A stretch of DNA of 64,000 bases, taken from Chiloscyllium plagiosum. Taxonomy: Eukaryota. Location: assembly GCF_004010195.1 (NCBI RefSeq), contig NC_057718.1, positions 9,702,910 to 9,766,909 of the forward strand, given 5' to 3'. Positions 6,425-50,591 of this stretch are shown here, one piece after another. Position numbers and translations under genes: made by a program. The notes under the pieces are model-generated. The model searched no databases and was not told the DNA's origin. It was given only the letters and a program-made list of their open reading frames with translations. Position 1 is the stretch's first letter, and every line of letters begins with the position of its first letter.

Positions 6425-6778
6425 AACGATGGCCTAGTGTTATTATCACTAGACTATTAATCCAGAGACCTGGATAATGTTTTGGGGACGTGGGTTCAAA
6501 TCCCACCATGGCAGAAGGTAGAATTTGAATTCAATAATAATCTGGAAAGATGAGTCTAATGATGACTGTTAAAGCATTGTTGGTTGTCAGGAAAGACCAA
6601 CTGGTTCACTAATGCCCTTTAGGAATGGAAATCTACCATTCTTAATTGGTGTGGACTACATGTGACTCCAGACCCACAGCAATGTGGTTGACTCTTAACT
6701 GCCTTCTGTGCAATTAAGGATAGGCAATAAATGCTGGCCTAGCCAAGGGCACCCACATCCCATGAATGAATAAAAAAA
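6425..6778 (+). mobile_element. Second tRNA-headed SINE family (ACATGTGACTCCAGACCCACAGCAA core)
   Basis: A-box TGGCCTAGTG, B-box GGTTCAAATCCC, tail ATGAATGAATAAAAAAA. Minus-strand fragments at ~18210-18440, 33430-33720, 38850-39200, 45575-45715, 47020-47300. Confidence 0.75.
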
Positions 6779-10689: not shown

Positions 10690-12495
10690 ACAGGGAGGCA
10701 ATGGCCTAGTGGCCAAGGCAGATTTGAATTCATATTCTGAAATAGCCTTGTAAGCCATTCAGTTGTACCAATCACTACAAAGTGTCAACAAAGAAATGAA
10801 ACCAGACTGGTCACCTAGCAGTGGTCCAGGGATCGGAAGAGACAATGGCAAAAACAGCCCTGCCGACCCTGCAAAGTCGTCCTCACTAAGATCTGGGGGC
10901 TAGTGCCAGACTATCTCACAGACTAGTCAAGCAACAGCCTGACATAGTCATACTCACAGAATCATACCTTATAGGCAATCCCCCACACACCACCACCACC
11001 AACCCTGAATGTATCCTGTCTTACTGGCAGGATACACCCAGCAGAGGTGGTGGCACAGTGGTATACAGTCTGGAGGGAGTTTCTCTGGGAGTCCTCCACA
11101 TTGATTCTGCACCATATGAAGTCTTATAGCTTCAGGCCAAACATGGGCAAGGAAACCACCTGCTGATTTCCACATGCTGTCCTCCCTCAGCTAATGAATA
11201 GATATTCCTCCGTATTGAACAATATTTGGAGGAAGCACTAAGTGTGGCAAGGGCACATAGTGTACTCTGGGTGGGGGATTTCAACGTCCATACTAAGAAT
11301 GATTCGGCAGCAGTATTATTGATCAAGCTGTTCGGGTCCTAATAGACACAGCTGCTAGACTGGGTCTGCAACAAGTGGTGAGGGAACCAACAAGAAGGAA
11401 AAACATACTTGATCTCATCCTTACCAGTCTGCCAGCTGCAGATGGATCTGTCCATGTCAATATCGGAAACCGCACTGTCCTTGTGGAGACAAAGTCCCGC
11501 CTCCACTTTGAGGATAACCTCCATTCTGTTGTGTGGCACTATCACTGTGCTAACTAGGACAGACTTCAAGACTGGACATCCATGAGGCCCTGTGGGCCAT
11601 CAACAATAACAGAATTGTACTCTAGCACAATATGTAATGTCATGAACGGGCATATCCACGAATCAATGATTAACATAATGTCTGGGGATCAATGCAGATT
11701 CAATGGAGAGTGCAGGAGGGCATGCCAGGAGCAGCATCAGGCATACCTGAAGATGAAGGGTCGAACTGGTAAAGCCACCAAACAGGACAATATGCCCAAA
11801 CAACATAAGCAAAAAGTGACAGACTGAACTAAGCGATCTCACAATTAGCAGATCAGATCTAAGCACTGCAGTCCTGCCACATCCAATCAGGTATGATGAT
11901 GGACAGTTAAACAACTTGAGAAGGAGACTCTACAAATGTCCCCAGCCTTAATGACACATCAGTGCAAAGTTAAGGCTGAAGCATTCGCAGCAATCTTCAA
12001 CCAGAGTGCCAAGTGGATGATTCTTCTCGGACTGTTGGTCTCTTGACACCATCCAGGATAAAGCGGCCCACTTGATTGGCACTGCATCCACAAGCATCCT
12101 TTCCCTTCACCACCAATGCTCAGTAGCAGCAGTATGTACTATCTACAAGATGCTCTGCAGAAATTCGCCATAGATCCTCAGACTGCACCTTCCAAACCCA
12201 TGACCCTTATCATCTAGAAGGACAAGGGCAGGTAGACACATGGGAACACCACCAACTGTTAGATCCCCTCCAAGCCACTCACCATCCTGACTTGGAAATA
12301 TATCGCCTTTCCTTCACTGTCGTTGGGTCAAAATCGTGGAATTCCCTCCCTAAGGGCATTGTGGGTCAACCCACAACACATGGACTGCAGCGGTTCAAGA
12401 AGGCAGCTCACCACCACCTTCTCAAGGGACAACTAGGGACAGGCAATGAATGGTGGCCCAGCCAACGACACCCATTTCCCACAAGTGAATAAAAC
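10690..12495 (+). mobile_element. Internally deleted LINE (APE endonuclease remnant plus 3' end), CR1/L2-group
   Basis: GDFN (11275-11286) and PTRRKNILDLILT endonuclease motifs; 3' peptide KSWNSLP..IV...LQRFKK; 3' tail shared with the SINE at 6425-6778. Confidence 0.75.
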
Positions 12496-12618
12496 AAAAT
12501 ACAGCACAGGAGGCCTTTCAGCCCATCGAGCCTTCACTGCTTGGATTGATTTAGGTTTGGTTTTCAGACACCGTTGGAGCTGCCCGCTATGGCGAATCCT
12601 GTCCCTCGGTGGGCGTAC

Positions 12619-12775
12619 CTGCTGGATGTAATCCCGAAAGCGCTTGAGGTTGGCAATGGCTGCAGCGAGGTCATGGCGGTCCACATGTTGGATGGGAGTG
12701 TGTAGCCTCAGAGCGCTCAGCAGTATCACGTACTCATCGAAGCGGCTGCTGAGGCTCAGCAGCATTTCCTGAAGA
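12619..12775 (-). CDS. ECT2L: ECT2L exon, DH domain end (SLQEMLL...LRLHTPIQHVDRHDL...RDYIQQ)
   Basis: 157 nt; LHTP..HVD motif; follows a 126-nt intron. Confidence 0.95.
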
Positions 12776-12901
12776 CTAACGACAACAATGGAGACAGCCA
12801 ATTTAAAAGAGAATAAACCCAAAACTGGCAGTTGCCAGGGCTACTCCACCACACACTAATGCACACTCACTACGTTAGAGAGATGCCAACAGTCAGCATA
12901 C

Positions 12902-15039: not shown

Positions 15040-15213
15040 GCGTGTTGCTGGAAAAGTAAATCCGGTCAGGCAGCATCCAAGGAGCAGGAGAGTCAACGTT
15101 TCGAGCATAAGGTCTTCATCAGGGAGTGCCTGTTCCCTGGATGCTGCCTGACCTGCTGCGCTTTTCCAGCAACACACTTTCAGCTCTGATCTGCAGACCT
15201 CACTTTCTCCTCC
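15040..15213. mobile_element. Mini inverted-pLTR PLE derivative with minus-strand hammerhead motif
   Basis: gtgttgctggaaaag...cttttccagcaacac inverted arms; reverse complement CTGATGAAGACCTTATGCTCGAAACGTT. Confidence 0.75.
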
Positions 15214-17164: not shown

Positions 17165-17465
17165 TTAAATTCCCTACAGTATGGAAACAGGCCCTTCAGC
17201 CCAACAAGTCCACACTGACCCTCCAATGAGTAACCCACCTAGACCCATTCACCTACATTTACCCCTGACTAATGCACCTAACACTACAGGCAATTTAGCA
17301 TGGCCAATTTACCTAACCTGCAGGAAACCGGAGCACCCGGAGGAAACCCACATAGACACAGGGAGAATGTACAAACTCTACACAGACAGTTGCCCGAGGT
17401 GGAAATTGAACTCGGGTCCCTGGCACTGCGAGGCAGCAGTGCTAACCACTGAGCCACCGTGCCAC
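17165..17465 (-). mobile_element. HE1-type SINE
   Basis: Same family as 5705-6020. Confidence 0.85.
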
Positions 17466-17569
17466 TTCCTTTCTGAACCCTTTCGGGTTTCACAACATCT
17501 ACAGCAGGGAGACCAGAATGCCATCATAACGTGATCATGCAAGATCAGGCACCTCAAGCAGACTCTCAC

Positions 17570-17717
17570 CTTGTCAATAGTCTTCAGAATGGTACTGTAG
17601 TTGTTGAAGAAGTTGGTATAGTTTGTCAGTCTGGTGCTGAACTTCACAAAGACATCTCCCAGACACTGCGACGGACCCCACTCGCTGAGACGCTCTCTCA
17701 AGTCCCTCAGTAAACTT
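17570..17717 (-). CDS. ECT2L: ECT2L exon, DH domain (SLLRDLRERLSEWGPSQCLGDVFVKF...YTNFFNNYSTILKTIDK)
   Basis: 148 nt; donor AAG|GTGAGA. Confidence 0.96.
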
Positions 17718-17857
17718 CTGCAACATTCAGAAGAACAGTCATTGTTATTAGAATGGACAAGGAATATGACTAACCGAACTAACATGACTAATGTGAGTGT
17801 CACTGACAGAGCCAGCATTTGTCACACATCCTTAATCACCCTTAAAATGAGTGGCTT

Positions 17858-18208: not shown

Positions 18209-18516
18209 AAATGGCTTGTTAGGCCATTTCAGAGTTAACCCGTTGCAGGTAAGGATGGCAGATTTCCTTCCCTAAAGGGCATTATTGAACCAGGTAGGTC
18301 TTGGCAGCAATTCTTACACGTTCACTATTAAGCCAGTCTTTTTGTATTCCAGACTTATCTGACATGGTGGGATTGGAACCCATGCCCCCAGGGTGAGATT
18401 CTGATTTACTAGTCCAGTGACATTCCCACTCGACACTGTCTCACCTTCATGTATAGACTAAGGGTTACCTGTGCGTGAGATACAAGCTGGGATCTGAGTG
18501 AGGGGTTTAACTGATT

Positions 18517-18644
18517 CCTGAAGAAGGGCCTGTGCCCGAAACGTCAAATCTCCTGTTCCCTGGATGCTGCCTGACCTGCTGTGCTGTTCCAGCAATAAAG
18601 TTTCAACTTTGATCTCCAGCATCTGCAGACCTCACTTTCTCCTC
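18517..18644 (+). mobile_element. 128-bp solo pLTR starting at a hammerhead motif, with 12-bp TSD
   Basis: GTTTAACTGATT at 18505-18516 and 18645-18656; element begins CCTGAAGAAGGGCCTGTGCCCGAAACGTC. Confidence 0.85.
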
Positions 18645-18817
18645 GTTTAACTGATTTACACATACAATGATTCAGACGGAAAGATGGTGCATTTGATTAA
18701 AGTCTCAGCAAAGTTGACCCAAGGGACAGTCCCCAGTTCCCACTCTTACACCCTTCAGATACCACGGTGGTTTGATAACCTGTGCTATCCTGCTTCAATA
18801 AAGTATCAGGTGTGCAC

Positions 18818-19032
18818 CTGTTGAGTTCCAGGATCAAGAGGATATCAGAAAAGATGATATGGATATTGGCCATGCTCAAGACTGCACGGTTGGAAGCCAG
18901 TGCTGCTCTGAGCCGAACCCAGTAAATGTCTTTCACAATCTCCAGAGTCTGCACGTAATTTTGCTCGCTTGACAAGGTCTCCCTGGCAAACTGGGTCCGT
19001 TTCTCCACAAACTTGCCACGTGGACTTCTGTT
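18818..19032 (-). CDS. ECT2L: ECT2L exon, DH domain start ([31 protein letters not shown]...[14 protein letters not shown])
   Basis: DH conserved region 1 (E.L.SE..YV..L); 215 nt, phase 0 to 2. Confidence 0.96.
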
Positions 19033-21717: not shown

Positions 21718-22201
21718 NNNNNNNNNNNNNNNNNNNNNNNNNNNNNNNNNNNNNNNNNNNNNNNNNNNNNNNNNNNNNNNNNNNNNNNNNNNNNNNNNNN
21801 NNNNNNNNNNNNNNNNNNNNNNNNNNNNNNNNNNNNNNNNNNNNNNNNNNNNNNNNNNNNNNNNNNNNNNNNNNNNNNNNNNNNNNNNNNNNNNNNNNNN
21901 NNNNNNNNNNNNNNNNNNNNNNNNNNNNNNNNNNNNNNNNNNNNNNNNNNNNNNNNNNNNNNNNNNNNNNNNNNNNNNNNNNNNNNNNNNNNNNNNNNNN
22001 NNNNNNNNNNNNNNNNNNNNNNNNNNNNNNNNNNNNNNNNNNNNNNNNNNNNNNNNNNNNNNNNNNNNNNNNNNNNNNNNNNNNNNNNNNNNNNNNNNNN
22101 NNNNNNNNNNNNNNNNNNNNNNNNNNNNNNNNNNNNNNNNNNNNNNNNNNNNNNNNNNNNNNNNNNNNNNNNNNNNNNNNNNNNNNNNNNNNNNNNNNNN
22201 N
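21718..22201. other. Assembly gap (N); others at 28911-29627, 33893-34275, 40809-41183
   Basis: Runs of n, all inside young repeats. Confidence 1.
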
Positions 22202-22524: not shown

Positions 22525-23580
22525 TATAGAGTCATAGAGATGTACAGCATGGAAACAGACCCTTTAGTCCAACTCGTCTATGCCAACCAGATATCCCAAA
22601 TTAATCTGATCCCATTTTCCAGCATTTGGCCCCTTTCCCTCTTAACCCTTTCTATTCATGTAACCAGAGTCTCTTTTAAATGTTGTAATTGTACCAGCCT
22701 CCATCACTTCCTCTGGCATCTCATTCCATACACGCATCATCCTCTGCATGAAAATGTTGCCCCTTAGGTCTCTCTTAAATCTTTCCCCCTCACCTTAAAA
22801 CACATGCCCTCCAGTTTTGGTAATATCCCCTACTCTGGGGAAAAGACTTTGACTATTCACCCTATTCATGTTCCTCATGATTTTATAAACCTCTGTAAAG
22901 TCATTCCTCAACCTCTGAAGAATCCAGGGAAAATAGCTCCAGCCTCTCCCTATAGCTCAAATCCTCCAACCCTGGCAACATCCTTGTAAATCTTTTCTGA
23001 ACCTTTTCAAGTTTCACAACATCCTTCTAATAGGAAGGAAACCAGAACTGAACATAGTATTCCAAAAGTGGCCTAACCAATGTCCTTTACAGCTGCAACA
23101 TGACCTCCCAACTGACAAATAAAAGCAAGTATACCAAATACCTTCTTCACTATCCTATCTACCTGCGACTCCACTTTCAAAGAACTATGAACCTGTACTC
23201 CAAGGTCTCTGTTCAGCAACACTCCTTACCATTAAGTGTAAAAGTCCTACCCTGATTTGCCTTTCCAAAACAGTTAAATTCACACAATACCAGGTTATAA
23301 TCCAACAGGTTTATTTGGAAGCACTAGCTTTCAGAGTGTGCTCCTTCAACCACCTGATGAAGGAGCAGTGCTCCAAAAGCTAGTGCTTCCAATTAAACCT
23401 GTTGGACTATAACTTGGTGTTGTGTGATTTTTAACTTTGTACACTCCAGTCCAACACTGGCTCCTCCACATCATGGTTTCCAGAACAGAACATCGCATTT
23501 ATCTAAATTAAACTCCACCTGCCACTCCTAGGCCGGAAGCTCACCTGATCAAGGTCCCGTTGGACACTGAGGTAGTCTTT
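22525..23580 (-). mobile_element. CR1 LINE 3' fragment interrupted by a PLE hairpin element
   Basis: Reverse complement of the CR1 3' region; insertion at ~23274-23475. Confidence 0.8.
23274..23475. mobile_element. Mini hairpin PLE derivative, family 2 (GGAGC-stem hammerhead)
   Basis: Inverted arms cacacaataccaggttataatccaacaggttt / aaacctgttggactataacttggtgttgtgtg; CTGATGAAGGAGCAGTGCTCC(A)AAAGCTAGTG; near-TSD tttccaaaacag/tttccagaacag. Confidence 0.8.
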
Positions 23581-24586
23581 TTAATGTCTGGATTAATGTC
23601 TGGTTGCTAACTTTGCTGGTGTCACCAAGGCAAGTAGGAAAGTAAGTTGTGTAGAGGACAAATTAATCTGCAAATGGACATTGATAGATCTGGGAAGCTT
23701 TCAACGTTGGGCTGATTTTGTAGTACAGTGGCTATTGTAGGAAACAGAGCAGGCAATTTGCATGCAACAAGCTCCCAAAACTATCTGAGCAGTGTCAGTT
23801 GATAGATATGTATTGGAGAGCCAGACATAACAGCCTTCACAATGAGTGTCAAGGGATCTTTCCTATTTATCTGAGAGTATGAACAATTTAACATTTCATC
23901 GAGAGCTGATACTTCTGTCTCTGCTACACTGGGACCATCAGCCTAGATTTTATGGTCAAGTCTTTGGAATGGGACTCAGAGCCAGAGGCCTTCCCCGTTG
24001 AACCATGTGTGATATCTGCAATCGCTTTGCAAATTCATTCCCCATCACGAAGCAGGGAACTCTGCAGAAGTCCAGAGGCAGTGGCCAGGCGGGTCACTGT
24101 AGGACCATGCAGTCATATTTATATGTCAAATTTGGTGAGAAATGTAGCTGCTTGGTTCTCAATATTCTTCTGCTGCTCAGTGTTGCCTGGACTGGAAATG
24201 TTTTAATCCAGTGCTGTGATTTCCCACCAATATTCAAAAGGAAATTCAGTGTAAACACTGGCACTAGGGATTAAAACTAACACTTATTGGACAATGGGGT
24301 AAGAACAGGGGAGTGGCACTAATGATATAGACCTTTCAAAGAGCCAGCTCAGGCAATGATGGCCCAAATGGCCTCCTCCTCTGTTGCATCCTTGTATGAT
24401 TCTTTTTGATTAAAGGCAGGTAGATAGATTCCTGATGAACAAAGGGTATTGGGGGATAGCAGAAAAGTGACATTGAGACTCCAGTTTGGGAGCCATGGTT
24501 GCAATGAATGGTGGAGAATGGACCACTCCTACCTCCCCTGTTCATAGGTTCACACATAGGCTGCGATGGTTTATGTGAGGACTCAC

Positions 24587-24676
24587 CGGGTGGATCAGCT
24601 CCTGCATGGTCTCCTCATGCTCCTGAAGTGGCTGAGAGTGAGGACTCAGACTCCCAGCTTCATCCACTTCCCCTTC
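24587..24676 (-). CDS. ECT2L: ECT2L exon (EGEVDEAGSLSPHSQPLQEHEETMQELIHP)
   Basis: Acceptor ctgttacag, donor CCG|GTGAGT, 90 nt phase 0; poorly conserved linker. Confidence 0.75.
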
Positions 24677-24737
24677 CTGTAACAGTGAACACAAAGGAAA
24701 ACAACATGCATGTGTGAAAGGATGAGGTGCAGAGTGT

Positions 24738-24970
24738 CTGCTGGGATAGTGACAGGGTGCGGTGTAGAGGGTGTGGCTGGGATAGTGACAGGGTGCGGTG
24801 TAGAGGGTGTGCTGGGATAGTGACAGGGTGCGGTGTAGAGGGTGTGCTGGGATAGTGACAAGGTGCGGTGTAGAGGGTGTGCTGGGATAGTGACAGGGTG
24901 CGGTGTAGAGGGTGTGCTGGGATAGTGATAGGGTGCGGTGTAGAGGGTGTGCTGGGATAGTGACAGGGTG
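24738..24970 (+). repeat. 35-bp minisatellite (CTGGGATAGTGACAGGGTGCGGTGTAGAGGGTGTG), ~6.5 copies
   Basis: Units start at 24741, 24777, 24812, 24847, 24882, 24917, 24952. Confidence 0.95.
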
Positions 24971-24984
24971 AGGGGCAGAGGATG

Positions 24985-27795
24985 TATTATTTTTTCCAAA
25001 GTGCAAGACCTCGCATTTGCTCACGTTGAATTTCATCAGCCATTTCTTGGACCATTCACCTAAACTGTCACCTAATCTTTCTGCAGCCTCCCCATCTCCT
25101 CAGAACTACCTGTACATCCACCTAACATCGTATCATCGGCAAACTTCGCCAGAATGCTCCCAGTCTCTTCATCCAGATCATTAATATATAAAGTGAACAG
25201 CTGGGGCCCCAACACCGAACCCTGCGGACACCACGTGTCACCAGCTACCATTCTGATAAAGAACCTTTTATCCCAACTCTCTGCCTTCTGTCAGACGGCC
25301 AATCCTCAATCTATGCCAGTAGCTCACTTCAAACACCATGGACCCTCACTTTACTCAGCAGCCTCCCGTGAGGCACCTTATCAAAGGCCTTTTGGAAGTC
25401 TAGGTAGATAACATCCATTGGGTTTCCATGATCTAACCTACTTGTTACCTCTTCAAAGAATTCTAACGGGTTTGTCAGGCATGACCTCCCCTTACTAAAT
25501 CCATGCTGACTTGTTCTAATTTGACCCTGCACTTCCAAGAATTTAGAAATCTCATCCTTACTGATGTATTCTAGAATTTTACCTACAACTGAGGTTAGGC
25601 TAATTAGCCTATAATTTTCCACCTTATGTCTTGATCCTTTCTTGAACAAGGGGGTTACAACAGCAATTTTCCAATCATCTGGGACTTTCCCTGATTCCAG
25701 TGATTTTTTGAAAGATCACCACCAATCCCTCCACTATTTCCTCAGCCATCTCCCTCAGAATTCTACGATGTAGCCCATCCGGGCCAGGAGATTTATCAGT
25801 TTTTAGACCTTTAGCTTTTCTAGTACTTTCTCCTTTGTAATGGGCACCATACCCAACTCTGCCCACTGAATCTCCTTAATTGTTGGGATATTACTCCTGT
25901 CTTCCACTGTGAAGACTGACACAAAGTATTTATTAAGTTCTTCAGCTTTTTCCTGATCTCCCAGCACTAGCCTTCCTGCATCAGTTTGGAGCAGCCCAAT
26001 CTCTACTTTTGCCTCTCAGTTGTTTCTTATGTATTGAAAGAAACTTTTACTATCATTTCTAATATTACTGGCTAGCTTACCTTCATATTTGATCTTCTCT
26101 ATCCTTATTTTTCTCTTTGTTCTCTGTTTGTTGTTGTAGTCTTTCCAATCTTCTGATTTCCCAGTGCTCTTGGCCACTTTATAGGCTCTGTTTTTCTGTG
26201 TTACATATCCTGAGTTTCTTCATCGGCCACGGTTGTCTAATCCCCCCTCCCCCCGGATAATCTTTCTTTTCTTTGGGATGAACCTCTGTACTGCATCCTC
26301 AATTACACCCGGAAACTCCTGCCATTGTTGCTCTACTGTCTTCCCCACTAGGCGCTGCTTCCAGTCAATTTTCATCAGTTCCTCTATCATGCCCTTGTAA
26401 TTACCTTTATTTAACTGTAACACCATTATATCTAATTCTACTTCTCTCTTTCAAACTGTAGACTGAATTCGACCTTACTATGTTCGCTGCATCCTAAGTA
26501 CTCCCTGACTTAAGGTCTTTTATAAAGTCTGGCTCATTACATAGCACTAAGTCCAGAATAGCCTGCTCCCTTGTGGGCTCCATCACAAGCTGTTCCAAAA
26601 CACCATCCTGTAAACATTCCATGAATTCCCTTTCTTTGGATCGACCAGCAACATATTCACCCAGTCCATTTGCATATTGAAGTCCCATGATCACCATGAC
26701 CTTGCCTTTCTGACATCCCTATCTATTTCCTGGTCCTGACCACTGCTGGGAGGTCTATATGTAACTCCCATTATGGGTTTTTTGCCTCTGTGATTCCTCA
26801 ACTCCACCCACACAGACTCCACATCATCTGACCCTGTATCATTTAATGCCATAGATTTAATTCTTAACTAACTTAACTCTTTCATTCTTAACTCTGCCCA
26901 CCTTCCTGTCTTTTCAATAAGTTTGTAAATCCTTGGATGTTTTACAGCCAGTCCTGAACCCCCTGCAACCACATCTCTGTGATGCCTACCACATCATTAT
27001 CATTCAAGATGATTTGTGCTGTTAATTCATCTACTTTGTTTCAAATGCTTCAAGCATTCAGATAAAGCATCTTAATGCTAATTTTTTTTATCCTCATGAT
27101 TTCCATCACCTCTACCTAAGTTATCCTTCCTTTTTGCTTCATTCCTAGTCAGCCTTGAACTTAAACCCTGCACACATGCTAAGCTGCTGCTTATCTTTCT
27201 ACTTGACTCCATACTCCCTGTTGCTTTCCCCGCCCCCCCCCGACTCACAAGTTTAAAGTCTTAGTGACCACTCTATTTATCCTTTTTGCCAGAACACTGG
27301 TTCCAGATTGGTTCAGGTGGAGACTGTCCCATTGGTACAGATCACCCCGGTTCCAAACCTGATGCCAATGTCCCATGAAATGGAATCCCTCTTTCCCATA
27401 CCGATCTCTTAGCCATGTGTTTCCTTCCCTAATTTTCTTATCCCTATGCCAATTAGCATGTGGCTCGGGCAGTAATCCAGAGATTATGACCGTCGAGGAC
27501 CTGTTCTTCAATTTCCTTCCTAGTGCTTGATAATCCTCCTTCCTAGCCTTGCCTATGTTGTTAGTGCCAACGTGGGCCACAACAACTGGATCCTCCCCCT
27601 TCCACTCCAATATCCCTTCAAGCCGGTCAGAGATGTCCTGCACCCTGGCACCAGGTAGGCAAAACGCCATGTGGGACTCCTGATCTGGCTCGCCAAGGAT
27701 ACTATCTGCCCCCTTAATTAAAGAATCCCCTATAACAACTACTTGTCTTTCTGCTCCCACCTCTTGAATGACCTTCTGCACCATGGTGCCATGGT
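24985..27795 (-). mobile_element. Long CR1 LINE: ORF1 SGNH/GDSL esterase, ORF2 endonuclease and RT (disrupted)
   Basis: ORF 27245-27985 has VVVIGDSL, CLPGARV, HVGTNN, DSLHLN. ORF2 remnants: PTREQAILDLVL, KSPGPDGLH, NYRLISLTSVVGKILE, YLDFQKAFDKVPH. Confidence 0.92.
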
Positions 27796-28424
27796 CAGCT
27801 AAAGACATCCCTAAAGAGCCTACAAGTTGATTTTGTAGTGCAGTGGCTGTTGTAGGAAATGGAGCAGGCAATTTGCATGCAACAAGCTCCCAAAACCATT
27901 CTAGCAATGTCAGTTGGTAGATATGTTTTGGAAAGCCAAATGTAACAGCCTTCAAAATGAGTGTCATGGGATCTCTCCCATTCATCCTGAGAGTATGAAC
28001 AATTTAACATTTCATCAAGAGCTGATACTTCTGTCTCTGTTACACTGGGAGCATCAGCCTAGATTTTATGGTTAAGTCTTGGGAATGAGATTCAGACAAA
28101 GGTGTTCACCATTGAGCCATGTATGATACCCGCAATTGCTTTGCAAATTCATTCCCCATCACAAAACAGGGAACTCTGCAGAAGTTGGAGGCGGAGGCCA
28201 GGTCGGTCACTGTAAGACCATGCAATTATATGTATGTGTCAAGTTTGGTGAGAAATGTAGCTGCTTGGTTCTCATTATCATTCTTCTGCTGCTCAGTGTT
28301 GCGTGGAGTGGAAATGCTTTAATCCAGTGTTGTGATTTCCTACCAGCATTCAAAAGGAAATTGGGTATAAACACTGGTACTAGGGATTAAAAATAAAACT
28401 TACAAGAGAATGGGGTAAGAACAG

Positions 28425-30554
28425 AGATGATGAGATGTGAAGGCTCAGGGCGCTTGAGGGTTACAAGGTAGCCAGGAAAGACCTAAAGAGAGAGGCCAGG
28501 AGGAGACATGAGAAGTTGTTGGCGGATAGGATCAGGGTAAACCCTAAGGCTTTCTATAGGTATTTAAGGAATAAAAGATGATGAGAGTAAGATTAGGGTC
28601 AATCAAGGATAGTAGTGGGAAGTTGTGTGTGGAGTCAGAGGAGATAGGGGAAGCAGTAAATGAATACTTTTCAACAGTATTCACTCTAGAAAACAACAAT
28701 GTTGTCGAGGAGATTGCTGAGATACAGGGTATTAGACTAGGTGTGATTGAGGTTCACAAGGAGGAGGTATTAGAAATCCTGCAGAGTGTGAAAATACATA
28801 AGTCCCCTGGGCCGGATGGGATTTATCCTAGGATCCCCTGAGAAGCCAGGGAGGAGATTGCTGAGTCTTTGGCATTGATCTTTAAATCATCATTGTCTAC
28901 AGGAATAGTGNNNNNNNNNNNNNNNNNNNNNNNNNNNNNNNNNNNNNNNNNNNNNNNNNNNNNNNNNNNNNNNNNNNNNNNNNNNNNNNNNNNNNNNNNN
29001 NNNNNNNNNNNNNNNNNNNNNNNNNNNNNNNNNNNNNNNNNNNNNNNNNNNNNNNNNNNNNNNNNNNNNNNNNNNNNNNNNNNNNNNNNNNNNNNNNNNN
29101 NNNNNNNNNNNNNNNNNNNNNNNNNNNNNNNNNNNNNNNNNNNNNNNNNNNNNNNNNNNNNNNNNNNNNNNNNNNNNNNNNNNNNNNNNNNNNNNNNNNN
29201 NNNNNNNNNNNNNNNNNNNNNNNNNNNNNNNNNNNNNNNNNNNNNNNNNNNNNNNNNNNNNNNNNNNNNNNNNNNNNNNNNNNNNNNNNNNNNNNNNNNN
29301 NNNNNNNNNNNNNNNNNNNNNNNNNNNNNNNNNNNNNNNNNNNNNNNNNNNNNNNNNNNNNNNNNNNNNNNNNNNNNNNNNNNNNNNNNNNNNNNNNNNN
29401 NNNNNNNNNNNNNNNNNNNNNNNNNNNNNNNNNNNNNNNNNNNNNNNNNNNNNNNNNNNNNNNNNNNNNNNNNNNNNNNNNNNNNNNNNNNNNNNNNNNN
29501 NNNNNNNNNNNNNNNNNNNNNNNNNNNNNNNNNNNNNNNNNNNNNNNNNNNNNNNNNNNNNNNNNNNNNNNNNNNNNNNNNNNNNNNNNNNNNNNNNNNN
29601 NNNNNNNNNNNNNNNNNNNNNNNNNNNCTGGATGAGGGCGTAGAAGGGTGGGTTAGTAAATTTGCAGACGACACTAAGGTTGGTAGAGTTGTGGATAGTG
29701 AAAAGGATGTTGTAGGTTACAGAGAGACATAGATAAGCTGCAGAGCTGGGCTGAGAGGTGGCAAATGGAGTTTAATGCAGACAAGTGTGAGGTGATTCAC
29801 TTTGGTCGGAGTAACTGAAATGCAAAGTACTGGGCTAATGGTAAGATTCTTGGTAGTGTAGATGAGCAGAGAGATCTCGGTGTCCAGGTACATGGATCCT
29901 TGAAAGTTGTCACCCAGGTTGACAGGGTTGTTAAGAAGGCATACAGTGTTTTAGCTTTTATTAATAGAGGGATCGAGTTCTGGAACCATGAGGTTATGCT
30001 GCAGCTGTACAAAACTCTGGTGCGGCCGCACTTGGAGTACAGTGTACAGTTCTGGTCACCGCATTATAAGAAGGATGTGGAAGCTTTGGAAAGGGTGCAG
30101 AGGAGATTTACTAGCATGTTGCCTGGTATGGAGGGAAGGTCTTACGAGGAAAGGCTGAGGGAGTTGAGATTGTTTTCGTTAGAGAGAAGAAGGTTGAGAG
30201 GTGACTTAATAGAGACATATAAGATAATGAGAGGGTTAGATAGGGTGGACAGGGGGAGCCTTTTTCCAAGAATGGTGATGGCGAGGACAAGGGGGCATAG
30301 CTTTAAATTGAGGGATGATAGATATAGGACAGATGTCAGAGGTAGTTTCTTTACTCAGAGTAGTAAGGGTATGGAATGCTTTGCCTGCAACGGTAGTAGA
30401 TTTGCCAACATTAAGTACATTTAAGTCGTCATTGGACAAGCATATGGACGTACATGGAATAGTGTAGGGTAGATGGGCTTCAGGTTGGTATGAAGGTCGA
30501 CGCAACATCAAGGGCCGAAGGGCCTGTACTGTGCTGTAATGTTCTATGTTCTAT
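28425..30554 (+). mobile_element. 5'-truncated young CR1 LINE with (GTTCTAT)n tail and AACAG TSD; contains a gap
   Basis: KSPGPDGIYPR, KFADDTK, LYKTLVRPHLEY; AACAG at 28420-28424 and 30555-30559. Confidence 0.92.
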
Positions 30555-31649: not shown

Positions 31650-32870
31650 GCAAGAAAACACACTCAGGTAAGGCAGAGTTATGGGGTGTATGAGCAAGAA
31701 CTGTACCACAGGGATCAATGCTGGGACCTTTGCTGTTTGTCATATGTATTAATGACTTTGATGGGAATGTAGAAGGTCTTATTAGTAAGCTTGCAGATGA
31801 CCTGAAAATTGGGGGCTGTTGATCATGAGGAGTTTGGTCTCAGGCTACAGTCTGATATTGGATCAGCTGGTACATTGGGCTGAGTGATAGCAGATAGAAT
31901 TTAATCCCGATAATTGTGAAGTGTTGCACTTTGGGAGGCCCAGCAGAAAAGGGTATACAAAATGAGTAATGGGTCCCTGGACTGTCCTGAGTACCTTGGT
32001 GTGCAGGTCCATAGATCCCTGAAAGTGCCAGCACAGGTAGACAGGCTGGTGAAGAAGGCATACAGGATACTTGTCTGCATTAGTTGGGGCATAGAACATA
32101 TGAGCAAGCCTAATAAAACATTGAGCTGAAAATGTGTTGCTGGAAAAGCGCAGCAGGTCAGGCAGCATCCAAGGAGCAAGAGAGCCTTCTTCAGGAATGC
32201 CCAAAACGTCGATTCTCCTACTCCTTGGATGCTGCCTGACCTGCTGCGCTTTTCCAGCAACACATTTTCAGCTCTGATCTCCAGCATCTGCAGTCCTCAC
32301 TTTCTCCTAATAAAACATTGATTAGGCCACAGATGGATTTCTGTGTGCACTTCCAGTCACCACCATTATTGGAAGGATGTATTTGCACTGGAGACGATGC
32401 AGAGGAAATTCATCAGGATGTAGTCCGGGATGGAAAGTCTCAGTTACAAGGAGAGATGTGGATAGGCTGGGTATGTTTTCCTTGGAGCAGAGGAGGCTGA
32501 GGGGGAATCTGACTGAGGTATACAGTATTATGAGAGACTTGGACAGGGTAGATCATGAGAATCTTTACCCCATGGCCGATGTGTCTAAGACCAGATGGCA
32601 CAAGTTTAAGGTGAGCAAATGGTTTAGAGAAGATCTGAGAAAAAACATTTTTCACTCAGAGGTTGATATAAGTACAGAAGGTGCTGCCTGAGAGGGAGGT
32701 GAAGGTAGGTACTCTCACAACATTGAACAAACATCTGGATGAGCACTTAAAATGCCAGGGCACAGTAGGCTCTGGACCAAGTGCGGGTAAATAGAATTAA
32801 TGCAGTTAAATGTTTGTTGGTTGGCATAGACTGGGTGGGCTGAAGGGCCTGTTCCTATGCTGAATGACTC
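31650..32870 (+). mobile_element. CR1 LINE RT/3' fragment interrupted by a PLE hairpin
   Basis: VPQGS.LGP and ADD remnants; RRLRGNL; 3' tail. Confidence 0.8.
32124..32307. mobile_element. Mini inverted-pLTR PLE derivative with 13-16 bp TSD
   Basis: TAATAAAACATTG at 32111-32123 and 32308-32320; long inverted arms around scrambled hammerhead halves. Confidence 0.85.
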
Positions 32871-33743: not shown

Positions 33744-35202
33744 AAACAATGACTGCAGATGCTGGAAACCAGATTCTGGATCAGTGGTGCTGGAAGAGCA
33801 CAACAGTTCAGGCAGCATCCGAGGAGCAGTAAAATCGACGTTTCGGGCAAAAGCCCTTCATCAGGAATAAAGGCAGAGAGCCTGAAGGGTGANNNNNNNN
33901 NNNNNNNNNNNNNNNNNNNNNNNNNNNNNNNNNNNNNNNNNNNNNNNNNNNNNNNNNNNNNNNNNNNNNNNNNNNNNNNNNNNNNNNNNNNNNNNNNNNN
34001 NNNNNNNNNNNNNNNNNNNNNNNNNNNNNNNNNNNNNNNNNNNNNNNNNNNNNNNNNNNNNNNNNNNNNNNNNNNNNNNNNNNNNNNNNNNNNNNNNNNN
34101 NNNNNNNNNNNNNNNNNNNNNNNNNNNNNNNNNNNNNNNNNNNNNNNNNNNNNNNNNNNNNNNNNNNNNNNNNNNNNNNNNNNNNNNNNNNNNNNNNNNN
34201 NNNNNNNNNNNNNNNNNNNNNNNNNNNNNNNNNNNNNNNNNNNNNNNNNNNNNNNNNNNNNNNNNNNNNNNNNNNNGCCTTGGATAGAGGTGTGGGAGGA
34301 GGTGTGGGCGCTGGTTTTACAGTTCCTGCGGTGGCAGGGGAAAGTGCCAGGATGGGAGGGTGGGTCGTAGGGGGGCGTGGACCTGACCAGGTAGTCACGG
34401 AGGGACCGGTCTTTGCGGAAGGCGGAGAGGGGTGGGGAGGGAAATATATCCCTGGTGGTGGGGTCTTTTTGGGGTGGTGGAAATGTCGGCGGATGATTTG
34501 GTTTATGCGGAGGTTGGTAGGGTGGAAGGTGGGCACCAGGGGCGTTCTGTCCTTGTTGCGGTTGGTGGGGTTGGGTCTGAGGGCGGAGGTGCGGGATGTG
34601 GACGAGATGCGTTGGAGGGCATCTTTAACCACGTGGGAAGGGAAATTGCGGTCTCTAAAGAAGGAGGCCATCTGGTGTGTTCTATGTTGGAGCTGGTCCT
34701 CCTGGGAGCAGATACGGCGGAGGAATTGGGAATATGGGATGGCATTTTTGCAAGAGGTAGGGTGGGAAGAGGTGTAATCCAGGTAGCTGTGGGAGTCAGT
34801 GGGTTTGTAAAAAATGTCAGTGTCAAGTCGGTCGCTATTAATGGAGATGGAGAGTTCCAGGAAGGGGTGGGAGGTGTCAGAGATGGTCCAGATAAATTTA
34901 AGGTCAGGGTGGAATGTGTTGGTGAAGTTGATGAATTGCTCAACCTCCTCGCGGGAGCACGAGGTGGCACCAATGCAGTCATCAATGTAGCGGAGGAGGA
35001 GGTGGGGAGTGGTGCCGGTGTAATTATGGAAAATCAACTGTTCTACGTAGCCAACAAAGAGACAGGCATGGCTGGGGCCCATACATGTGCCCATGGCTAC
35101 CCCTTTGGTCTGGAGGAAGTGGGAGGATTCGAAGGAGAAATTGTTAAGGGTGAGGACCAGTTCGGCCAAACGAATGAGAGTGTCGGTGGAAGGGTACTGT
35201 GG
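33744..35202 (-). mobile_element. Penelope-like retroelement (RT C-terminal part plus pLTR), 5'-truncated, with 12-bp TSD
   Basis: QTKGVAMGT.MGP, RYIDD, DIFYKPTDSHSYLDYTSSHP (PLE-type RT); GGTAGTAGGTAA at 33732-33743 and 35203-35214. Confidence 0.92.
33833..33868 (-). ncRNA. Minimal type I hammerhead ribozyme motif in a PLE pLTR
   Basis: Reverse complement ATTC-CTGATGA-A-GGGC-TTTT-GCCC-GAAAC-GTC-GATT. Confidence 0.8.
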
Positions 35203-35970
35203 GGTAGTAGGTAATTTTTAAGTCAAAGTTCTGATCATTTGCATACTATATATGAGTTTTGTAATGTAGGAGATTGAGCCATATTGTAGTCTGTTTGTCC
35301 TGATACTTAGTTGGGGAATGTTGTTCCATAATTTTATCACACGTTGACTCCCAAGTGATTGTGACAAGAAATAGTGGTGATGGGAGGTGGTATTCAGGAG
35401 TTTTCTGGTCAGGTGCAGACAAACGTCCCTGAAACGGCTGAACCATTATGTTTTTGGGAATGTAAAATTAATGCCTCTGCGACATTTGTGTTTATAAATG
35501 GTCTGTAAATTTCACCAAGGGAAGAAGAGGGGAAATGAGAGGTAAAGACTGAGTAAGAAAAAAGAGCAAAAATTCAGTAAGTGGGAAATCTCAATATTAA
35601 TCTTCCACATCGATTTCTATAGGGAAAAAAAACCCGAAAGAACTGCAGATGCTGGAAATCAGAAACAGTGAGAAAGCGTCACTGGACCTGAAACTTTAAC
35701 TCCGATTTCTCTCCACAGATGCTGCCAGACCTGCTGAGATTTTCCAGTAATTTCTGTTTCAATTTCTATAGAATTCACTGGGTTCTTTGACAGAGAATGC
35801 CAGGATATCAGGAATGAAAGAGCCCGCTGATTATATATCAGGGATAACAACAGAGAAATTACACAGCTTTGCTTATTATGGGAGTTTAAAGAAATTCCAG
35901 TAACTTAACAAGTATTAGGTACCTAACTATTAAATGCAGGAGGAGGAATAAAACATGACTGAAATCGTAC

Positions 35971-37492: not shown

Positions 37493-37694
37493 GTGAAAAA
37501 TCACACAACACCAGGTTTCAGTCCAACAGGTTTAATTGGAAGCACTAGCTTTCAGAGCACTGCTCCTTTATCAGGCGGTTGTCTAGTAGTGCTCCGAAAG
37601 CTGGTGCTTCCAATTAAACCTGTTGGACTATAATTTGGTGGTGTGTGATTTTTAACTTTGTCCACCCCAGTCCAACACTGGCCCCTCCACATCA
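37493..37694. mobile_element. Mini hairpin PLE derivative, family 2, with 10-bp TSD
   Basis: TTCATCTATT at 37483-37492 and 37695-37704; homologous to 23274-23475. Confidence 0.85.
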
Positions 37695-38297
37695 TTCATC
37701 TATTATGGTCCAGCTGTGGTTATTTGGGTCTCCAGATGTGGTTAATCATTAAAGAAGCAATGTGCTATAGGCATTACCATTGGCTATGTGATCCATTACT
37801 CATTTGTATGTGAACTTTAAATTCTTTTACACGTATTGGTGAAAGAGGAAATTAAAAGTAAATTGTGCAAGTGATTTTTGATTATTAAAGCAGCTTCCAG
37901 AATACTTGCAAATGTTTATTTCTCGTATGTGTCTGTGTGGGTATGTGCGTGTACGTTTGTGTGTGTCTGTGAGTGCGCCTGTGTGTGTCTCTGTCTCTGT
38001 ACCTGTGTGTGTGAGGCACCTTCTGCTAGTATCAGTGCATGTGGCTAAAAACACTGGCAGAAAGTGGAAATAAAAATTGTCCCCCCCTTGACTCTATCCC
38101 CTCCGACCATTCCTGAGGTAGGGACATCAAGGGGTCAAAATGAACTTGCCCCAGCTCATTCAAAAACAAAGAAAACCAAAAGAAAATCAAATCCCCTCTG
38201 GTCCGTTCCCCATTGAATGTTCCTGGGCCAGGTTCAAAAAGGATTTCAAAATCCAGAGCAGAGTTCCTTTACTCATTTTAACTAAAGGTAAAATCCT

Positions 38298-40693: not shown

Positions 40694-41312
40694 AAAGACC
40701 ACTCCCTCCGTGACTCCCTCGTCAGATCCACACCCCCCACCAACCCAACCTCCACTCCCGGCACCTTCCCCTGCAACCGCAGGAGGTGCAAGACTTGCGC
40801 CCACACCTNNNNNNNNNNNNNNNNNNNNNNNNNNNNNNNNNNNNNNNNNNNNNNNNNNNNNNNNNNNNNNNNNNNNNNNNNNNNNNNNNNNNNNNNNNNN
40901 NNNNNNNNNNNNNNNNNNNNNNNNNNNNNNNNNNNNNNNNNNNNNNNNNNNNNNNNNNNNNNNNNNNNNNNNNNNNNNNNNNNNNNNNNNNNNNNNNNNN
41001 NNNNNNNNNNNNNNNNNNNNNNNNNNNNNNNNNNNNNNNNNNNNNNNNNNNNNNNNNNNNNNNNNNNNNNNNNNNNNNNNNNNNNNNNNNNNNNNNNNNN
41101 NNNNNNNNNNNNNNNNNNNNNNNNNNNNNNNNNNNNNNNNNNNNNNNNNNNNNNNNNNNNNNNNNNNNNNNNNNNNNNNNNNNATTCCTGAAGAAGGGCT
41201 TATGCCCGAAACGTCGATTCTCCTGTTCCCTGGATGCTGCCTGACCTGCTGCGCTTTTCCAGCAACACATTTCCAGCTCTGATCTCCAGCATCTGTAGAC
41301 CTCACTTTCTCC
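40694..41312 (+). mobile_element. PLE 3' fragment (Cys linker CNRRRCKTC, gap, pLTR) with 10-bp TSD
   Basis: TTTAAACTGT at 40684-40693 and 41313-41322; inserted in a CR1 remnant. Confidence 0.85.
41184..41219 (+). ncRNA. Minimal hammerhead ribozyme motif
   Basis: ATTC-CTGAAGA-A-GGGC-TTAT-GCCC-GAAAC-GTC-GATT; predicted cleavage after GUC at 41215. Confidence 0.8.
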
Positions 41313-41620
41313 TTTAAACTGTGACCCCAGTGTAAATTCCCCCATGAGAGGAAACATTCCTCTCAGTATCTCCCTGGTCAGAGTCCCTCAGAACTTTACA
41401 TGTTGACACAAGGTTTTCTCTCATTCTTTCAAATCCTATTCAGTCCTGGTCCAAACTGCTCAACCTACCCTCATAGCACAATCCTTTCGTCTCAGGGATC
41501 AGGTCAGCGAACGTTCTCTGAGTTGACCCCAATGCAAGTATGTTCCTCTTTAACCTTGTGTCTCTGAGTTGATCATAATGTCCTGATTGATTAGTATCTG
41601 ATCACCAAGGTTCTACTTGC

Positions 41621-41789: not shown

Positions 41790-42915
41790 CTGCCAGCAGG
41801 AACAAACCTCAATAATGAGAACAGCACCCTCTTCCTCCATCCTTCCAAACCTGTATCATGGATTTCCCCACTTTGGTGAGACTGAGTTGGAGGAGGGAGT
41901 GGGGTGATATTTAGTATGTTCAAATGCCTTCCACCATTTTTAATAAAGGCACCTCAATCTTTTTGAATCAGAAGATCATAGGCACAAGCTCCCATCCAAG
42001 GACTGAGCACAGAATGGAGGCTGAAACTCCAGTATAGGTCTGGGCTATCTGAGGAGCTGTCTTTCAGTTTAATCAAGGCACTACCTCCCTCTCAGATGGA
42101 TTTAAGGCTGCGTGTCACAGTGAGAATACTGCATCCAGTTCTGGTACCCACACTTCAGGAGAGGATGGACAGGTTTGTGACACAACATAGAGGAGATTGA
42201 ACCAGAATGGTTCCAGCACTAATGGTGGGAATGGTTCCAGGAATGAGGGGCCTTTGCCATAGGTTTGGTTTGAAGAAGCTGGAGTTGTTCTCCTTGGAAT
42301 GAAGGACAGTGAGAGAAGCTTTGATCAATGGAGTGAGATGAATGACCAGGTTAGGTAAGGTTGACAAAGAAACACTGCTCCCTTGAGCTGATGGTATAAG
42401 GACTAGGGCACATGGGTGTCACAAGGCATGCAGATGGGAAGGTGAGGATGAAATGTTTTCCATTGTGTTCAGTAACAACGTGGCAATCACTACCTGTGAG
42501 GGCAGGGAATGTGGAAATGGTCAATGATTTCCAAAGAAAATCAGGTTGATACTTGCAGGAAATAAAATGGCAGGGATAGAGTGGAGAACGGAGCTGACTG
42601 GACTACTGTATACTGTATACAAGGCCCCAAAGGAAACTTCCATATCCGCCACAGATTCACCTGTACCTCCACACATATCATCTATTGCATCCTTTGCACC
42701 CGATGTGGCCTCCTCTATATTGGGGAGACGGGCCGCCTACTTGCGGAGCGTTTCAGGGAACACCTCTGGGACACCCGGACCAACCAACCCAACCACCCTG
42801 TAGCTCAACATTTCAATTCCCCCTCCCACTCCACCAAGGATATGCAGGTCTTTGGACTCCTCCATCGTCAGACCACAGCGAAACGACGGTTGGAGGAAGA
42901 ACGAGGGAACAGGAG

Positions 42916-42951
42916 AATCGACGTTTCGGGCATTAGCCCTTCTTCAGGAAT
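42916..42951 (-). ncRNA. Minimal hammerhead ribozyme motif (ECT2L sense strand)
   Basis: Exact reverse complement of 43029-43064. Confidence 0.8.
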
Positions 42952-43028
42952 GAGGAAAGTTGGTCCAGCAGGCTAAGATAAAAGATAGGGACTATCTTTT
43001 ATCTTAGCCTGCTGGACCAACTTTCCTC

Positions 43029-43064
43029 ATTCCTGAAGAAGGGCTAATGCCCGAAACGTCGATT
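43029..43064 (+). ncRNA. Minimal hammerhead ribozyme motif
   Basis: ATTC-CTGAAGA-A-GGGC-TAAT-GCCC-GAAAC-GTC-GATT. Confidence 0.8.
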
Positions 43065-43803
43065 CTCCTGTTCCCTAGATGCTGCCTGACCTGCTGCGCT
43101 TTTCCAGCAACACATTTCCAGCTACTGTATACAGAGCCAACACAGACCCAATGGGCTGAATGATCTCCTTCTGCATTTTTCTAACCCTTCCTCAGAGAGT
43201 AAAGACGTTCTCCACAGCATCCTGCCCAATATTTATTGTCCAAACACAGTTGCTCCTTGTGAGATCCAGCTGGACACAAATTGGGCTTCAATTCTGCATC
43301 GCAACAGTAACTACATAGTCAGGAGCGGGGTGCTGGGAAAGAACAGCAGGTCAGGCAGCATTCAAGGAGCAGGAGAATCGATGTTTCGGGCATGAGCTCT
43401 TCAGGCCTTTTTCAGCACCTTCCTCTCGACTCTGATCTCCCACATCTGGAGTCCTCACTGTCTCCAACAGTGAGGACATATCAAAGGTAACTATCCTGGC
43501 TGTGATGTGCTTTTGTTTGTCCTGTGAGGTGATGGTGGTGGTGCTTTATAATTGTATTGAAAATACTTCTGTTTTGCTGATCTCTCAGGCCTTCTGGATT
43601 GCCTGTGATCCTGACTCTCACTCAGCAACACCCCATCCAGGCTGGGCCTGAACATCACAGGAATTAGCTATCTTAAGACACCAATCAACAGGTCCTTGTA
43701 TTTCCATTCAGAACCTCCCCTCTCCTACCTCCATCCACCCTACTCTCGCCCCCACATGCCCTCGCCACTGCCAGCATGTTCCCTGGTTCAGGATAACCCT
43801 TAC

Positions 43804-49900: not shown

Positions 49901-50428
49901 CCCAATGTTAGTGAGGAGGTAGAACACTCTGGGCTTATAACCGAATGGATTCTGCAGAGCACCTAATGACCTCTCCAGCCCCACCTCTGCCTCTCCCTGG
50001 ACATCCATGACTATAGGATGTTGTCCAAAACCAGGTTTAAATGGTCCCATCAATGCCCCACTCCCCACACCCACCCTTTCTTGTGATACCAAAGAGCTTC
50101 ATGAGGAGTGAAAGTAATAGCTGGGGGAATTCCCCATTGGAAAGAGACAATGGGCTGAAGGGTCTCGTGTGCTAGTGTCCCCACTAAGGTTCCCTCCGGG
50201 ATGTTCAACAAAAGGATCTTCACTCACTCAGAGATATGGCATTATTAAGAAGGTGAAGGGAGCCGGAGTGCCGTTGGCTGACCTTCCCAATAAGCTTCAG
50301 TATGTGGTGGTCTCTAATTTGGGGACTGACAACGTCCAATCTCCTACATATTGATGACCATCCTGAGCCTCACACCGGATTCCATGGGAGTGCAGTCATT
50401 GGGAAAGTGCGAGAATGGAATTGCTGAC

Positions 50429-50591
50429 CTGCTCTGACAGAAACCTCCAGTGCCAGTTAACTTGGGAGATGGAGCACAACTCTCTGGGATTCAGGAATGA
50501 GAAGATGTAAAGCGATAGGAACCGTGGCAGGACGGTGGTGAAATCAAGGCTGGTCACTGGGATAGTCTCGGCAAACCATTTCTGGATGAAT
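50429..50591 (-). CDS. ECT2L: ECT2L exon, F-box (FIQKWF...[39 protein letters not shown])
   Basis: F-box pattern LP...IFSFL...L....V...W; 163 nt, phase 2 to 0. Confidence 0.96.

Follow-up and report, generated by a model that had tools for sequence, protein, structure and literature searches.

Penelope-like elements (PLEs) are defined by a reverse transcriptase (RT) joined to a C-terminal GIY-YIG endonuclease, according to the consulted sections of PMC11167929 and PMC8557442. In metazoans, their pseudo-LTRs (pLTRs) carry minimal hammerhead ribozymes (min-HHRs) which, as described in PMC4209133, combine CUGANGA and GAAA boxes with a G10.1-C11.1 pair and a short helix I of 2–5 bp, have a palindrome at 15.2–16.2 and no helix III loop, adjoin the RT/GIY-YIG open reading frame (ORF), and also occur as thousands of solitary copies and as close opposite-strand pairs. 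The unit described here is alike in these respects, a helix I of that length being seen in the commonest young copies. Cervera and De la Pena (2014) considered the solitary motifs to be ‘probably related to truncated PLEs’ (PMC4209133); the solitary copies reported below have a common 5′ boundary, which falls on the first base of helix I. With regard to insertion architecture, the available parts of two accounts describe a 30–40-bp ‘tail’ at one end only of PLE insertions (PMC8557442) and an inverted pLTR in a rotifer that is 37 bp shorter (PMC3846280). For an Anolis PLE studied in vitro, two adjacent RT starts were reported, along with an enzyme that cleaves and extends both strands (PMC11167929). 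Animal non-LTR retrozymes, as portrayed in the sections consulted of PMC7229834 and of Li et al. 2026, resemble the present unit in being ORF-less, hammerhead-bearing, PLE-associated and dispersed as monomers, and differ from it, as far as PMC7229834 was consulted, in that the unit is not in tandem and its hammerhead is minimal rather than canonical.

The window, a 64,000-nt stretch of contig NC_057718.1 of Chiloscyllium plagiosum (genome size 3.56 Gb), contains an insert at 18514/18518-18644 that measures 127 nt, or 131 nt when the ambiguous ATT plus C is counted. On direct reading it opens at 18518-18545 with CTGAAGA-A-GGGC-CTGT-GCCC-GAAAC-GTC, and the exact 12-bp target-site duplication (TSD) GTTTAACTGATT is found on both sides of it, at 18505-18516 and 18645-18656. 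A preliminary description of this DNA, which had reported a 128-bp insertion starting at a hammerhead core within a 12-bp direct repeat, is thereby confirmed at a length of 127–131 nt. Positions within the unit (q) are counted from the C of the CTGA box, and q127 is the 3′ end of the unit. Compared with the commonest young variant, the insert has a single difference, a CpG transition at 18546. The ‘tail’, which is missing from most inverted arms at other loci, is present, and an inverted arm is absent. RhoGEF-domain exons read on the minus strand lie on either side (Pfam matches at 18700-19032, 17381-17821 and 12436-12840), which places the insert in an intron, in antisense orientation relative to the host gene. 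The insert is the leader, or pLTR, of an RT + GIY-YIG PLE, extending from the first base of helix I to the end of the ‘tail’. This particular copy is probably inert: it runs antisense to the host gene, stands alone with no second unit in tandem to complete a dimeric hammerhead, and no longer has the G1.1-C2.1 pair. Coordinates of all features are collected in Table 1.

Table 1. Positions of the insert, its motif elements, related PLE sequences and the hairpin repeat. Positions are those of the window unless a locus is named.
Feature	Position	Strand	Basis or remark
Minimal hammerhead motif	18514-18549	+	Direct reading; feature list of PMC4209133
Helix I 5′ strand ATTC	18514-18517	+	Direct reading
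CTGAAGA box	18518-18524	+	Direct reading
Unpaired A	18525	+	Direct reading
Helix II GGGC/GCCC, loop CTGT	18526-18537; arms 18526-18529, 18534-18537	+	Direct reading
GAAA box	18538-18541	+	Direct reading
Palindromic ACGT replacing helix III	18541-18544	+	Direct reading
GTC triplet	18543-18545	+	Predicted cleavage after C18545
Helix I 3′ strand AAAT	18546-18549	+	GAAT in commonest young copies
Left TSD GTTTAACTGATT	18505-18516		Final ATT alternatively insert positions -4 to -2
Right TSD GTTTAACTGATT	18645-18656		Exact 12-bp repeat
Solo leader/pLTR of young PLE subfamily	18518-18644	+	127 nt (131 nt with ATTC)
‘Tail’, 36–39 nt past alternative 3′ end q88-91	18609-18644	+	Kept on the insert’s arm
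Head-to-head pair of unit	15045-15212		BLAST; inverted arm 15045-15122 (-), main arm 15129-15212 (+)
Head-to-head pair of unit	32124-32308		32124-32183 (-), 32198-32308 (+); 13–16-bp TSD
Older head-to-head pair of unit	43331-43465		BLAST
PLE fragment	42566-43123	+	GIY-YIG ORF piece 42566-42903, then leader inverted repeat 42904-43076
Older PLE 3′ part	55344-55960	+	GIY-YIG region 55344-55552, ORF end, unit 55839-55960
Older PLE 3′ part	61783-62433	+	GIY-YIG region 61783-62063, unit 62344-62433
PLE copy	33753-35217	-	RT piece 34276-35217, N block 33893-34276, unit 33753-33864
Older-subfamily unit	41188-41313	+	Directly after N block 40809-41183
Hairpin repeat	23274-23480; 37493-37700		Near-perfect 75-bp hairpin, -104.9 kcal/mol, z = -19
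ORF-less 224-nt tandem derivative	L106 39-614; L103 481-834		~37 places genome-wide

Every sequence feature listed for the PLE min-HHR in PMC4209133 was found in the motif of the commonest young copies. The insert itself has the CUGANGA and GAAA boxes and the H17 triplet, together with the unpaired base between positions 9 and 10.1 and the G10.1-C11.1 pair; the helix III hairpin is absent, and the ACGT palindrome (15.2-16.2) allows pairing between two copies. Helix I of the commonest young copies, such as that at locus L106, comprises 4 bp (AUUC/GAAU), and the minimum-energy fold predicted for the -4 to q40 RNA of the commonest young copy consists of helices I and II (-7.2 kcal/mol). The window copy carries A instead of G at 18546, directly after GUC, which disrupts the first helix I pair; three of the four pairs are left, and helix I is missing from the best fold. 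A dimeric hammerhead fold is predicted at -13.3 kcal/mol for the commonest young copy and at -8.3 kcal/mol for the window copy; for the former, the best predicted dimer fold has -18.5 kcal/mol. The earlier reading of the motif as a minimal type I hammerhead of PLE origin was thus the right one, the sequence features of the min-HHR being present. A match to a hammerhead model was not obtained: scanning the whole window and L106 with Rfam, whether the gathering score or E ≤ 10 was the limit, returned no hammerhead or other ribozyme family, as expected of a motif without helix III. Measured against the Rfam models, the motif lies outside the canonical type I hammerhead family.

The motif is overrepresented in the window. 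The pattern CTGANGA-N6-30-GAAAC was observed nine times against 1.17 expected, a count reached in none of 100 shuffles. Eight of these matches belong to one repeat; the ninth, at 2067-2092, appears to be fortuitous. With up to three mismatches allowed, the 28-mer core recurs five times, compared with zero expected. A BLAST comparison of the unit with the window gave 18 additional pieces spread over about 12 other places, the nearest 3.3 kb from the insert, and the previous count of roughly 15 motif remnants in 64 kb is accordingly a fair one. Five related units with inverted arms had also been proposed, several of them with TSDs. Three do contain the unit (15045-15212, 32124-32308 and 43331-43465), but those at 23274 and 37493 have no BLAST similarity to it. 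The TSD stands at 32124-32308 (13–16 bp), but no exact repeat of at least 7 bp flanks 15042-15212, and 43331-43465 offers just one doubtful 7-mer.

The units at 23274 and 37493 represent a separate long-hairpin repeat, perhaps MITE-like or a hairpin SINE, with about 50 nt of shared sequence after the hairpin and TTAA at both ends of the 23274 copy. An Rfam scan of 23250-23470 gave generic hairpin (miRNA-type) matches only and no hammerhead. A type III hammerhead was considered for this repeat and rejected, as the CTGATGA lies in the loop of the 75-bp hairpin and the other copy is without CTGATGA. The window also contains a LINE-type element on the minus strand (24545-28003) with RVT_1 at 25332-25715 and a GDSL-esterase-like ORF at 27248-28003, and an exon-like minus-strand ORF with an F-box domain (50399-50761, E 6.8e-8). 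A tRNA-like fragment on the plus strand at 6465-6508 comprises a T-arm and acceptor; its match to the tmRNA model (E 3.8e-6) falls short of the gathering score, and it possibly forms the head of a tRNA-derived SINE.

The association of the unit with PLE coding sequence is evident in the window. In three older copies the unit is located about 285 nt downstream of GIY-YIG coding sequence, and in one further copy (33753-35217) an RT piece precedes the unit with an N block between them. It had been stated that the same sequence ends the coding PLE copies, and the unit does follow the GIY-YIG region at two places (55344-55552 followed by 55839-55960, and 61783-62063 followed by 62344-62433). Elsewhere in the genome, the young copy L010 has a GIY-YIG match at the Pfam cut-off 158–968 nt upstream of its unit. 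At 42904-43076, a 173-bp inverted repeat with 98% identity covers the leader region to about -40 and abuts a cut-short GIY-YIG ORF; its arms are an example exceeding the usual -4 boundary described below. Runs of N occupy 21718-22201, 28911-29627, 33893-34276 and 40809-41183 of the window. Two of these lie directly upstream of PLE leader units, where PLE coding sequence is expected, and comparable runs cover PLE coding parts at many genomic loci.

A very large genome-wide copy number had been anticipated from the window, and an exact 32-mer from the 3′ end of the unit indeed occurred 29,917 times in the genome, while its reversed-pattern control occurred 0 times. The best 40 scored of 614 candidates were all 100% identical to the unit over 125–127 nt. 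Among nine head-to-head loci with an A after GUC in the main arm, eight have a G in the inverted arm (L001, L008, L013, L018, L021, L022, L023 and L030); this mismatch reflects either different templates for the two arms or CpG decay after insertion.

The positions of the 5′ ends were determined in two sets of copies. Among the 30 best matches, a set biased toward full-length units, 20 start at -4 to q1 and 10 continue upstream into PLE sequence; 10 have an inverted arm abutting the start of the unit, and 10 are simple units beginning at (A)TTC-CTGAAGA, with TSDs visible in most. For the unbiased sample, occurrences of the 32-mer were taken in order along contig 1 until 70 had been reached, with no rows dropped. 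In this position-ordered sample, main-arm 5′ ends fall at -10 to +7 in 40 of 70 loci, at q10 to q90 in 24 (including five at q16), and farther upstream, at scattered positions, in six. Inverted arms end at -10 to +7 in 25 of 34 cases. Exact flanking repeats of at least 10 bp were present at 37 of 70 loci, compared with 2 of 1371 mismatched-flank pairings, an excess indicating that the boundaries are true insertion ends and not limits of homology to the reference. In loci where the end can be placed from the TSD, (A)TTC opens the unit; the last bases of the TSD are often A, AT or ATT, which is compatible with the ATT-type target preference of the Anolis PLE (PMC11167929).

The same boundary emerged from a break test in the young subfamily, in which exact patterns were counted with a purine replacing C at a given position. 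A purine at -5, marking a break between -5 and -4, occurred 2,094 times. At q28, the hammerhead cut site, it occurred 135 times out of about 17,600 (intact C, 17,511), and at the control position q36, 150 times. Breaks between -5 and -4 are therefore about 15-fold more frequent than at the two other positions, while the hammerhead cut site has no excess of genomic breaks over the control. The element’s own C at -5 was retained in 7,033 arms, as against the 2,094 with a purine, indicating, against too simple a picture, that longer copies are common in the young subfamily; in the 70-locus sample, copies exceeding the unit length make up 4 of the 23 young ones and 2 of the 47 older ones. At L114, three arms all end at -4 and one jump joins q262 to -4, which fits repeated template jumps from the 5′ end of the RNA.

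The 5′ ends are thus common to the copies and not random. Ordinary random 5′ truncation of PLE cDNAs would account for the 24 of 70 ends scattered inside the unit and the six scattered upstream, and heavy 5′ truncation is typical of PLEs in the consulted parts of PMC8557442. With 40 of 70 ends within an 18-nt span and the 15-fold excess at the -5/-4 break, this explanation is barely credible as a general account, and the heavy random truncation entertained in the preliminary description was wrong, given that ends at -10 to +7 are found in 40 of the 70 main arms and in 25 of the 34 inverted ones. A shared boundary does not by itself imply an independent family, because it falls where the PLE leader begins, and this leader lies ahead of the PLE ORF start as well. 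The choice originally posed, between truncated or inverted PLE insertions and a retrozyme-like family, therefore divides: the PLE origin stands and random truncation does not, and an ORF-less tandem derivative exists although the insert is not one.

Recombination between the two direct pLTRs of a former full-length insertion would also leave a solo pLTR. The intact TSD around one pLTR is as expected from such an event, and solo pLTRs are mentioned for rotifer PLEs in the available part of PMC3846280. The copies are nevertheless very young, the best 40 scored of 614 being identical, and solo units outnumber longer copies by 40 to 6 among the 70 loci. Since inverted arms, the loss of the tail from one arm and arms ending within the unit are also left unexplained, recombination is very improbable.

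The tandem derivative is ORF-less and has a 224-nt period, in which the leader to q206 is joined to the last ~20 nt before the next leader. Its exact junction (q206/-20) occurs 39 times at about 37 places, in arrays of up to five units. Its layout may be called retrozyme-like by analogy, and it fits the genomic layout of non-LTR retrozymes given in the sections consulted of PMC7229834; short tandem repeats bearing a hammerhead are found in this derivative and not in the flagged unit. A route can be envisaged in which a tandem transcript is cut by dimeric hammerheads and circularised monomers are reverse-transcribed, the solo unit being the offspring of a monomer. The existence of the derivative at L106 and L103 speaks for it, as does an architecture suited to a dimeric hammerhead, with ACGU pairing between copies and a feasible predicted fold at -13.3 kcal/mol, and PLE pLTR-derived retrozymes are proposed in the consulted part of the Li et al. 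2026 preprint. Against it, the best dimer fold at -18.5 kcal/mol is not the hammerhead dimer, the flagged unit is single, its 5′ end lies 32 nt upstream of the predicted cut, and breaks at the cut site are no commoner than at the control. With 29,917 unit ends set against 39 tandem junctions, we judge this route to be improbable. Hammerhead cleavage was likewise considered as what sets the -4 boundary and was rejected, because GUC lies 32 nt further downstream and a hammerhead core cannot be brought against the boundary in any pairing scheme.

The place of the unit within the element was determined from copies that extend further. A targeted pattern search of the genome showed the unit continuing beyond q127 at 360 places; no shared continuation past q127 was present among 100 sampled units. 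The continuation reaches an ATG at q163, about 36 nt after q127, followed by an open frame of at least 113 aa in L107 and 236 aa more in L117, up to an N stretch. A Pfam search of these 349 aa found no domain. Protein searches with the frame gave three matches in one case and 1 of 8000 scored candidates in another, its only relatives in these searches being three proteins without domains, of which two are attributed by name to orectolobiform sharks. We infer that the frame past q163 leads on to the RT. As read from the sequence, the unit is the leader that separates one ORF's end from the beginning of the following ORF, in other words the pLTR; it starts with the minimal hammerhead motif and ends where nearly all genomic copies end. 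The solo unit is without the sequence downstream of the RT start and without a tandem partner.

We propose, with moderate confidence, that solo units are run-off cDNAs of the 5′ leader of the PLE RNA. The PLE enzyme would nick the target and prime reverse transcription within the leader at q127, with an alternative RT start at q88-91 yielding copies without the ‘tail’. The template RNA's 5′ end would be the A four bases before CUGA, so that reverse transcription begun in a 5′-proximal leader would run off after 131 nt as a complete cDNA, to be joined by 1–3 nt of microhomology with a 12-bp target duplication. The leader would be present at both ends of the full element RNA and would also head read-out transcripts. 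Starts in a 5′-proximal leader copy would yield nothing longer, which would explain the abundance of leader-length inserts. In units with an inverted arm, both target strands would have been primed and two cDNAs joined head to head. The run-off leader copies are most likely dead ends.

The inverted arms have the form described for PLE insertions. A head-to-head inverted arm is present at 34 of 70 loci and is usually 36–39 nt shorter than the main arm. Seventeen of the 34 end at q88-91, four at q92-97 and six at q78, the last in older subfamilies where the reference sequence diverges, and two reach q118 or beyond. This shortening matches the published inverted-pLTR and tail architecture of PLEs. 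The insertions also resemble those in the consulted parts of PMC3846280 and PMC8557442 in their TSDs of 7–17 bp and in the occurrence of ORF-less pLTR-only inserts. Unlike the insertions described there, they comprise tens of thousands of pLTR-only copies with a sharp common 5′ boundary and a pLTR of ~131 bp. The Anolis PLE is similar in having two adjacent 3′ ends that define the tail, both strands usable as primers, and a hammerhead ~100 nt upstream of the RT start (PMC11167929). It differs in that its RT start lies within the ORF and its hammerhead over the start codon, whereas the RT start here lies ~36 nt before the ATG (PMC11167929).

The 5′ end of the RNA is most likely set by a transcription start rather than by ribozyme cleavage. 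The A at -4 lies within the initiator-like CTCATTCC, which we take to match the initiator pattern, and a TTTTAT block is found 27–32 nt upstream. Both matches are short and could have arisen by chance, and they lend weak support to a transcription start. Of two raw RNA runs, X19 was the one with coverage; this single-cell polyA library, ill-suited to 5′ ends, contained the unit on both strands, with 86% of reads entering unrelated sequence and no start pile-up, ends or joints reported for the unit. In Drosophila, Penelope has an internal, LINE-like promoter, as described in the part of PMC2377424 consulted, with transcription starting upstream of the hammerhead (consulted parts of PMC2377424 and PMC4209133). 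The rotifer pLTR, in the portion of PMC3846280 available, has a putative TATA and initiator inside the pLTR and not at its edge, a placement that counts against a transcription start at the edge of the leader.

A promoter within the unit is also central to a further explanation, in which the 131-nt unit would itself constitute a mobile family, non-autonomous and SINE- or retrozyme-like, that PLE enzymes copy in trans and that comprises an internal promoter firing at its first base, the ribozyme and an RT entry site. Both boundaries are shared, as such a family would require, and only 2 of 47 older copies exceed the unit length. A cDNA ending at the transcription start needs an internal promoter in order to survive, and Drosophila Penelope has one according to the consulted part of PMC2377424; rotifer pLTRs alone are enough for mobilisation in trans according to that of PMC3846280. 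Most head-to-head junctions vary between loci in position and filler, the pattern expected of joints formed de novo at each insertion, which counts against the recopying of existing units; a few junction types (L036/L062 and L063/L088) do, however, repeat at different loci with different TSDs. Further against such a family, the lizard element needs ~55 nt of RNA beyond the RT start in vitro (PMC11167929), which is lost in solo units. A solo-only subfamily was not demonstrated, and the RNA reads of the single-cell polyA library X19 gave no sign of unit-length transcripts. We regard a non-autonomous family as rather unlikely. A stronger version, in which the 131-nt leader would be a complete mobile module with an initiator-type promoter, a minimal hammerhead and the PLE RT entry, its solo, paired and tandem forms being recopied in trans, is distinctly unlikely. 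If true, the module would rank among the smallest polymerase-II-driven retroelements, and PLE enzymes would begin on the 5′ leader and then jump, comparable to retroviral strong-stop DNA.

Much of this framework has already been published, namely PLE min-HHRs, their solitary and opposite-strand copies, solo and inverted pLTRs, the tail, internal initiation, and PLE-derived retrozymes. A non-exhaustive literature search met with no description of leader-only insertions having a common 5′ boundary on the first base of helix I, nor of a cut site without genomic trace. PLE replication is poorly understood with respect to the definition of the pLTR, the template RNA and the role of the hammerhead. 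With the run-off reading preferred here, tens of thousands of very young leader-only insertions provide ends that amount to a natural sequencing experiment: two reverse-transcription starts would be marked by the 3′ ends of the units, and a single sharp end of the template, at the hammerhead's first base, by their 5′ ends, with the cut site leaving no trace. This pattern points to a transcription start beside the ribozyme and not to ribozyme processing. PLE minimal hammerheads escape the Rfam models, and counts of ‘hammerhead’ motifs in such genomes would mostly tally dead leader copies.
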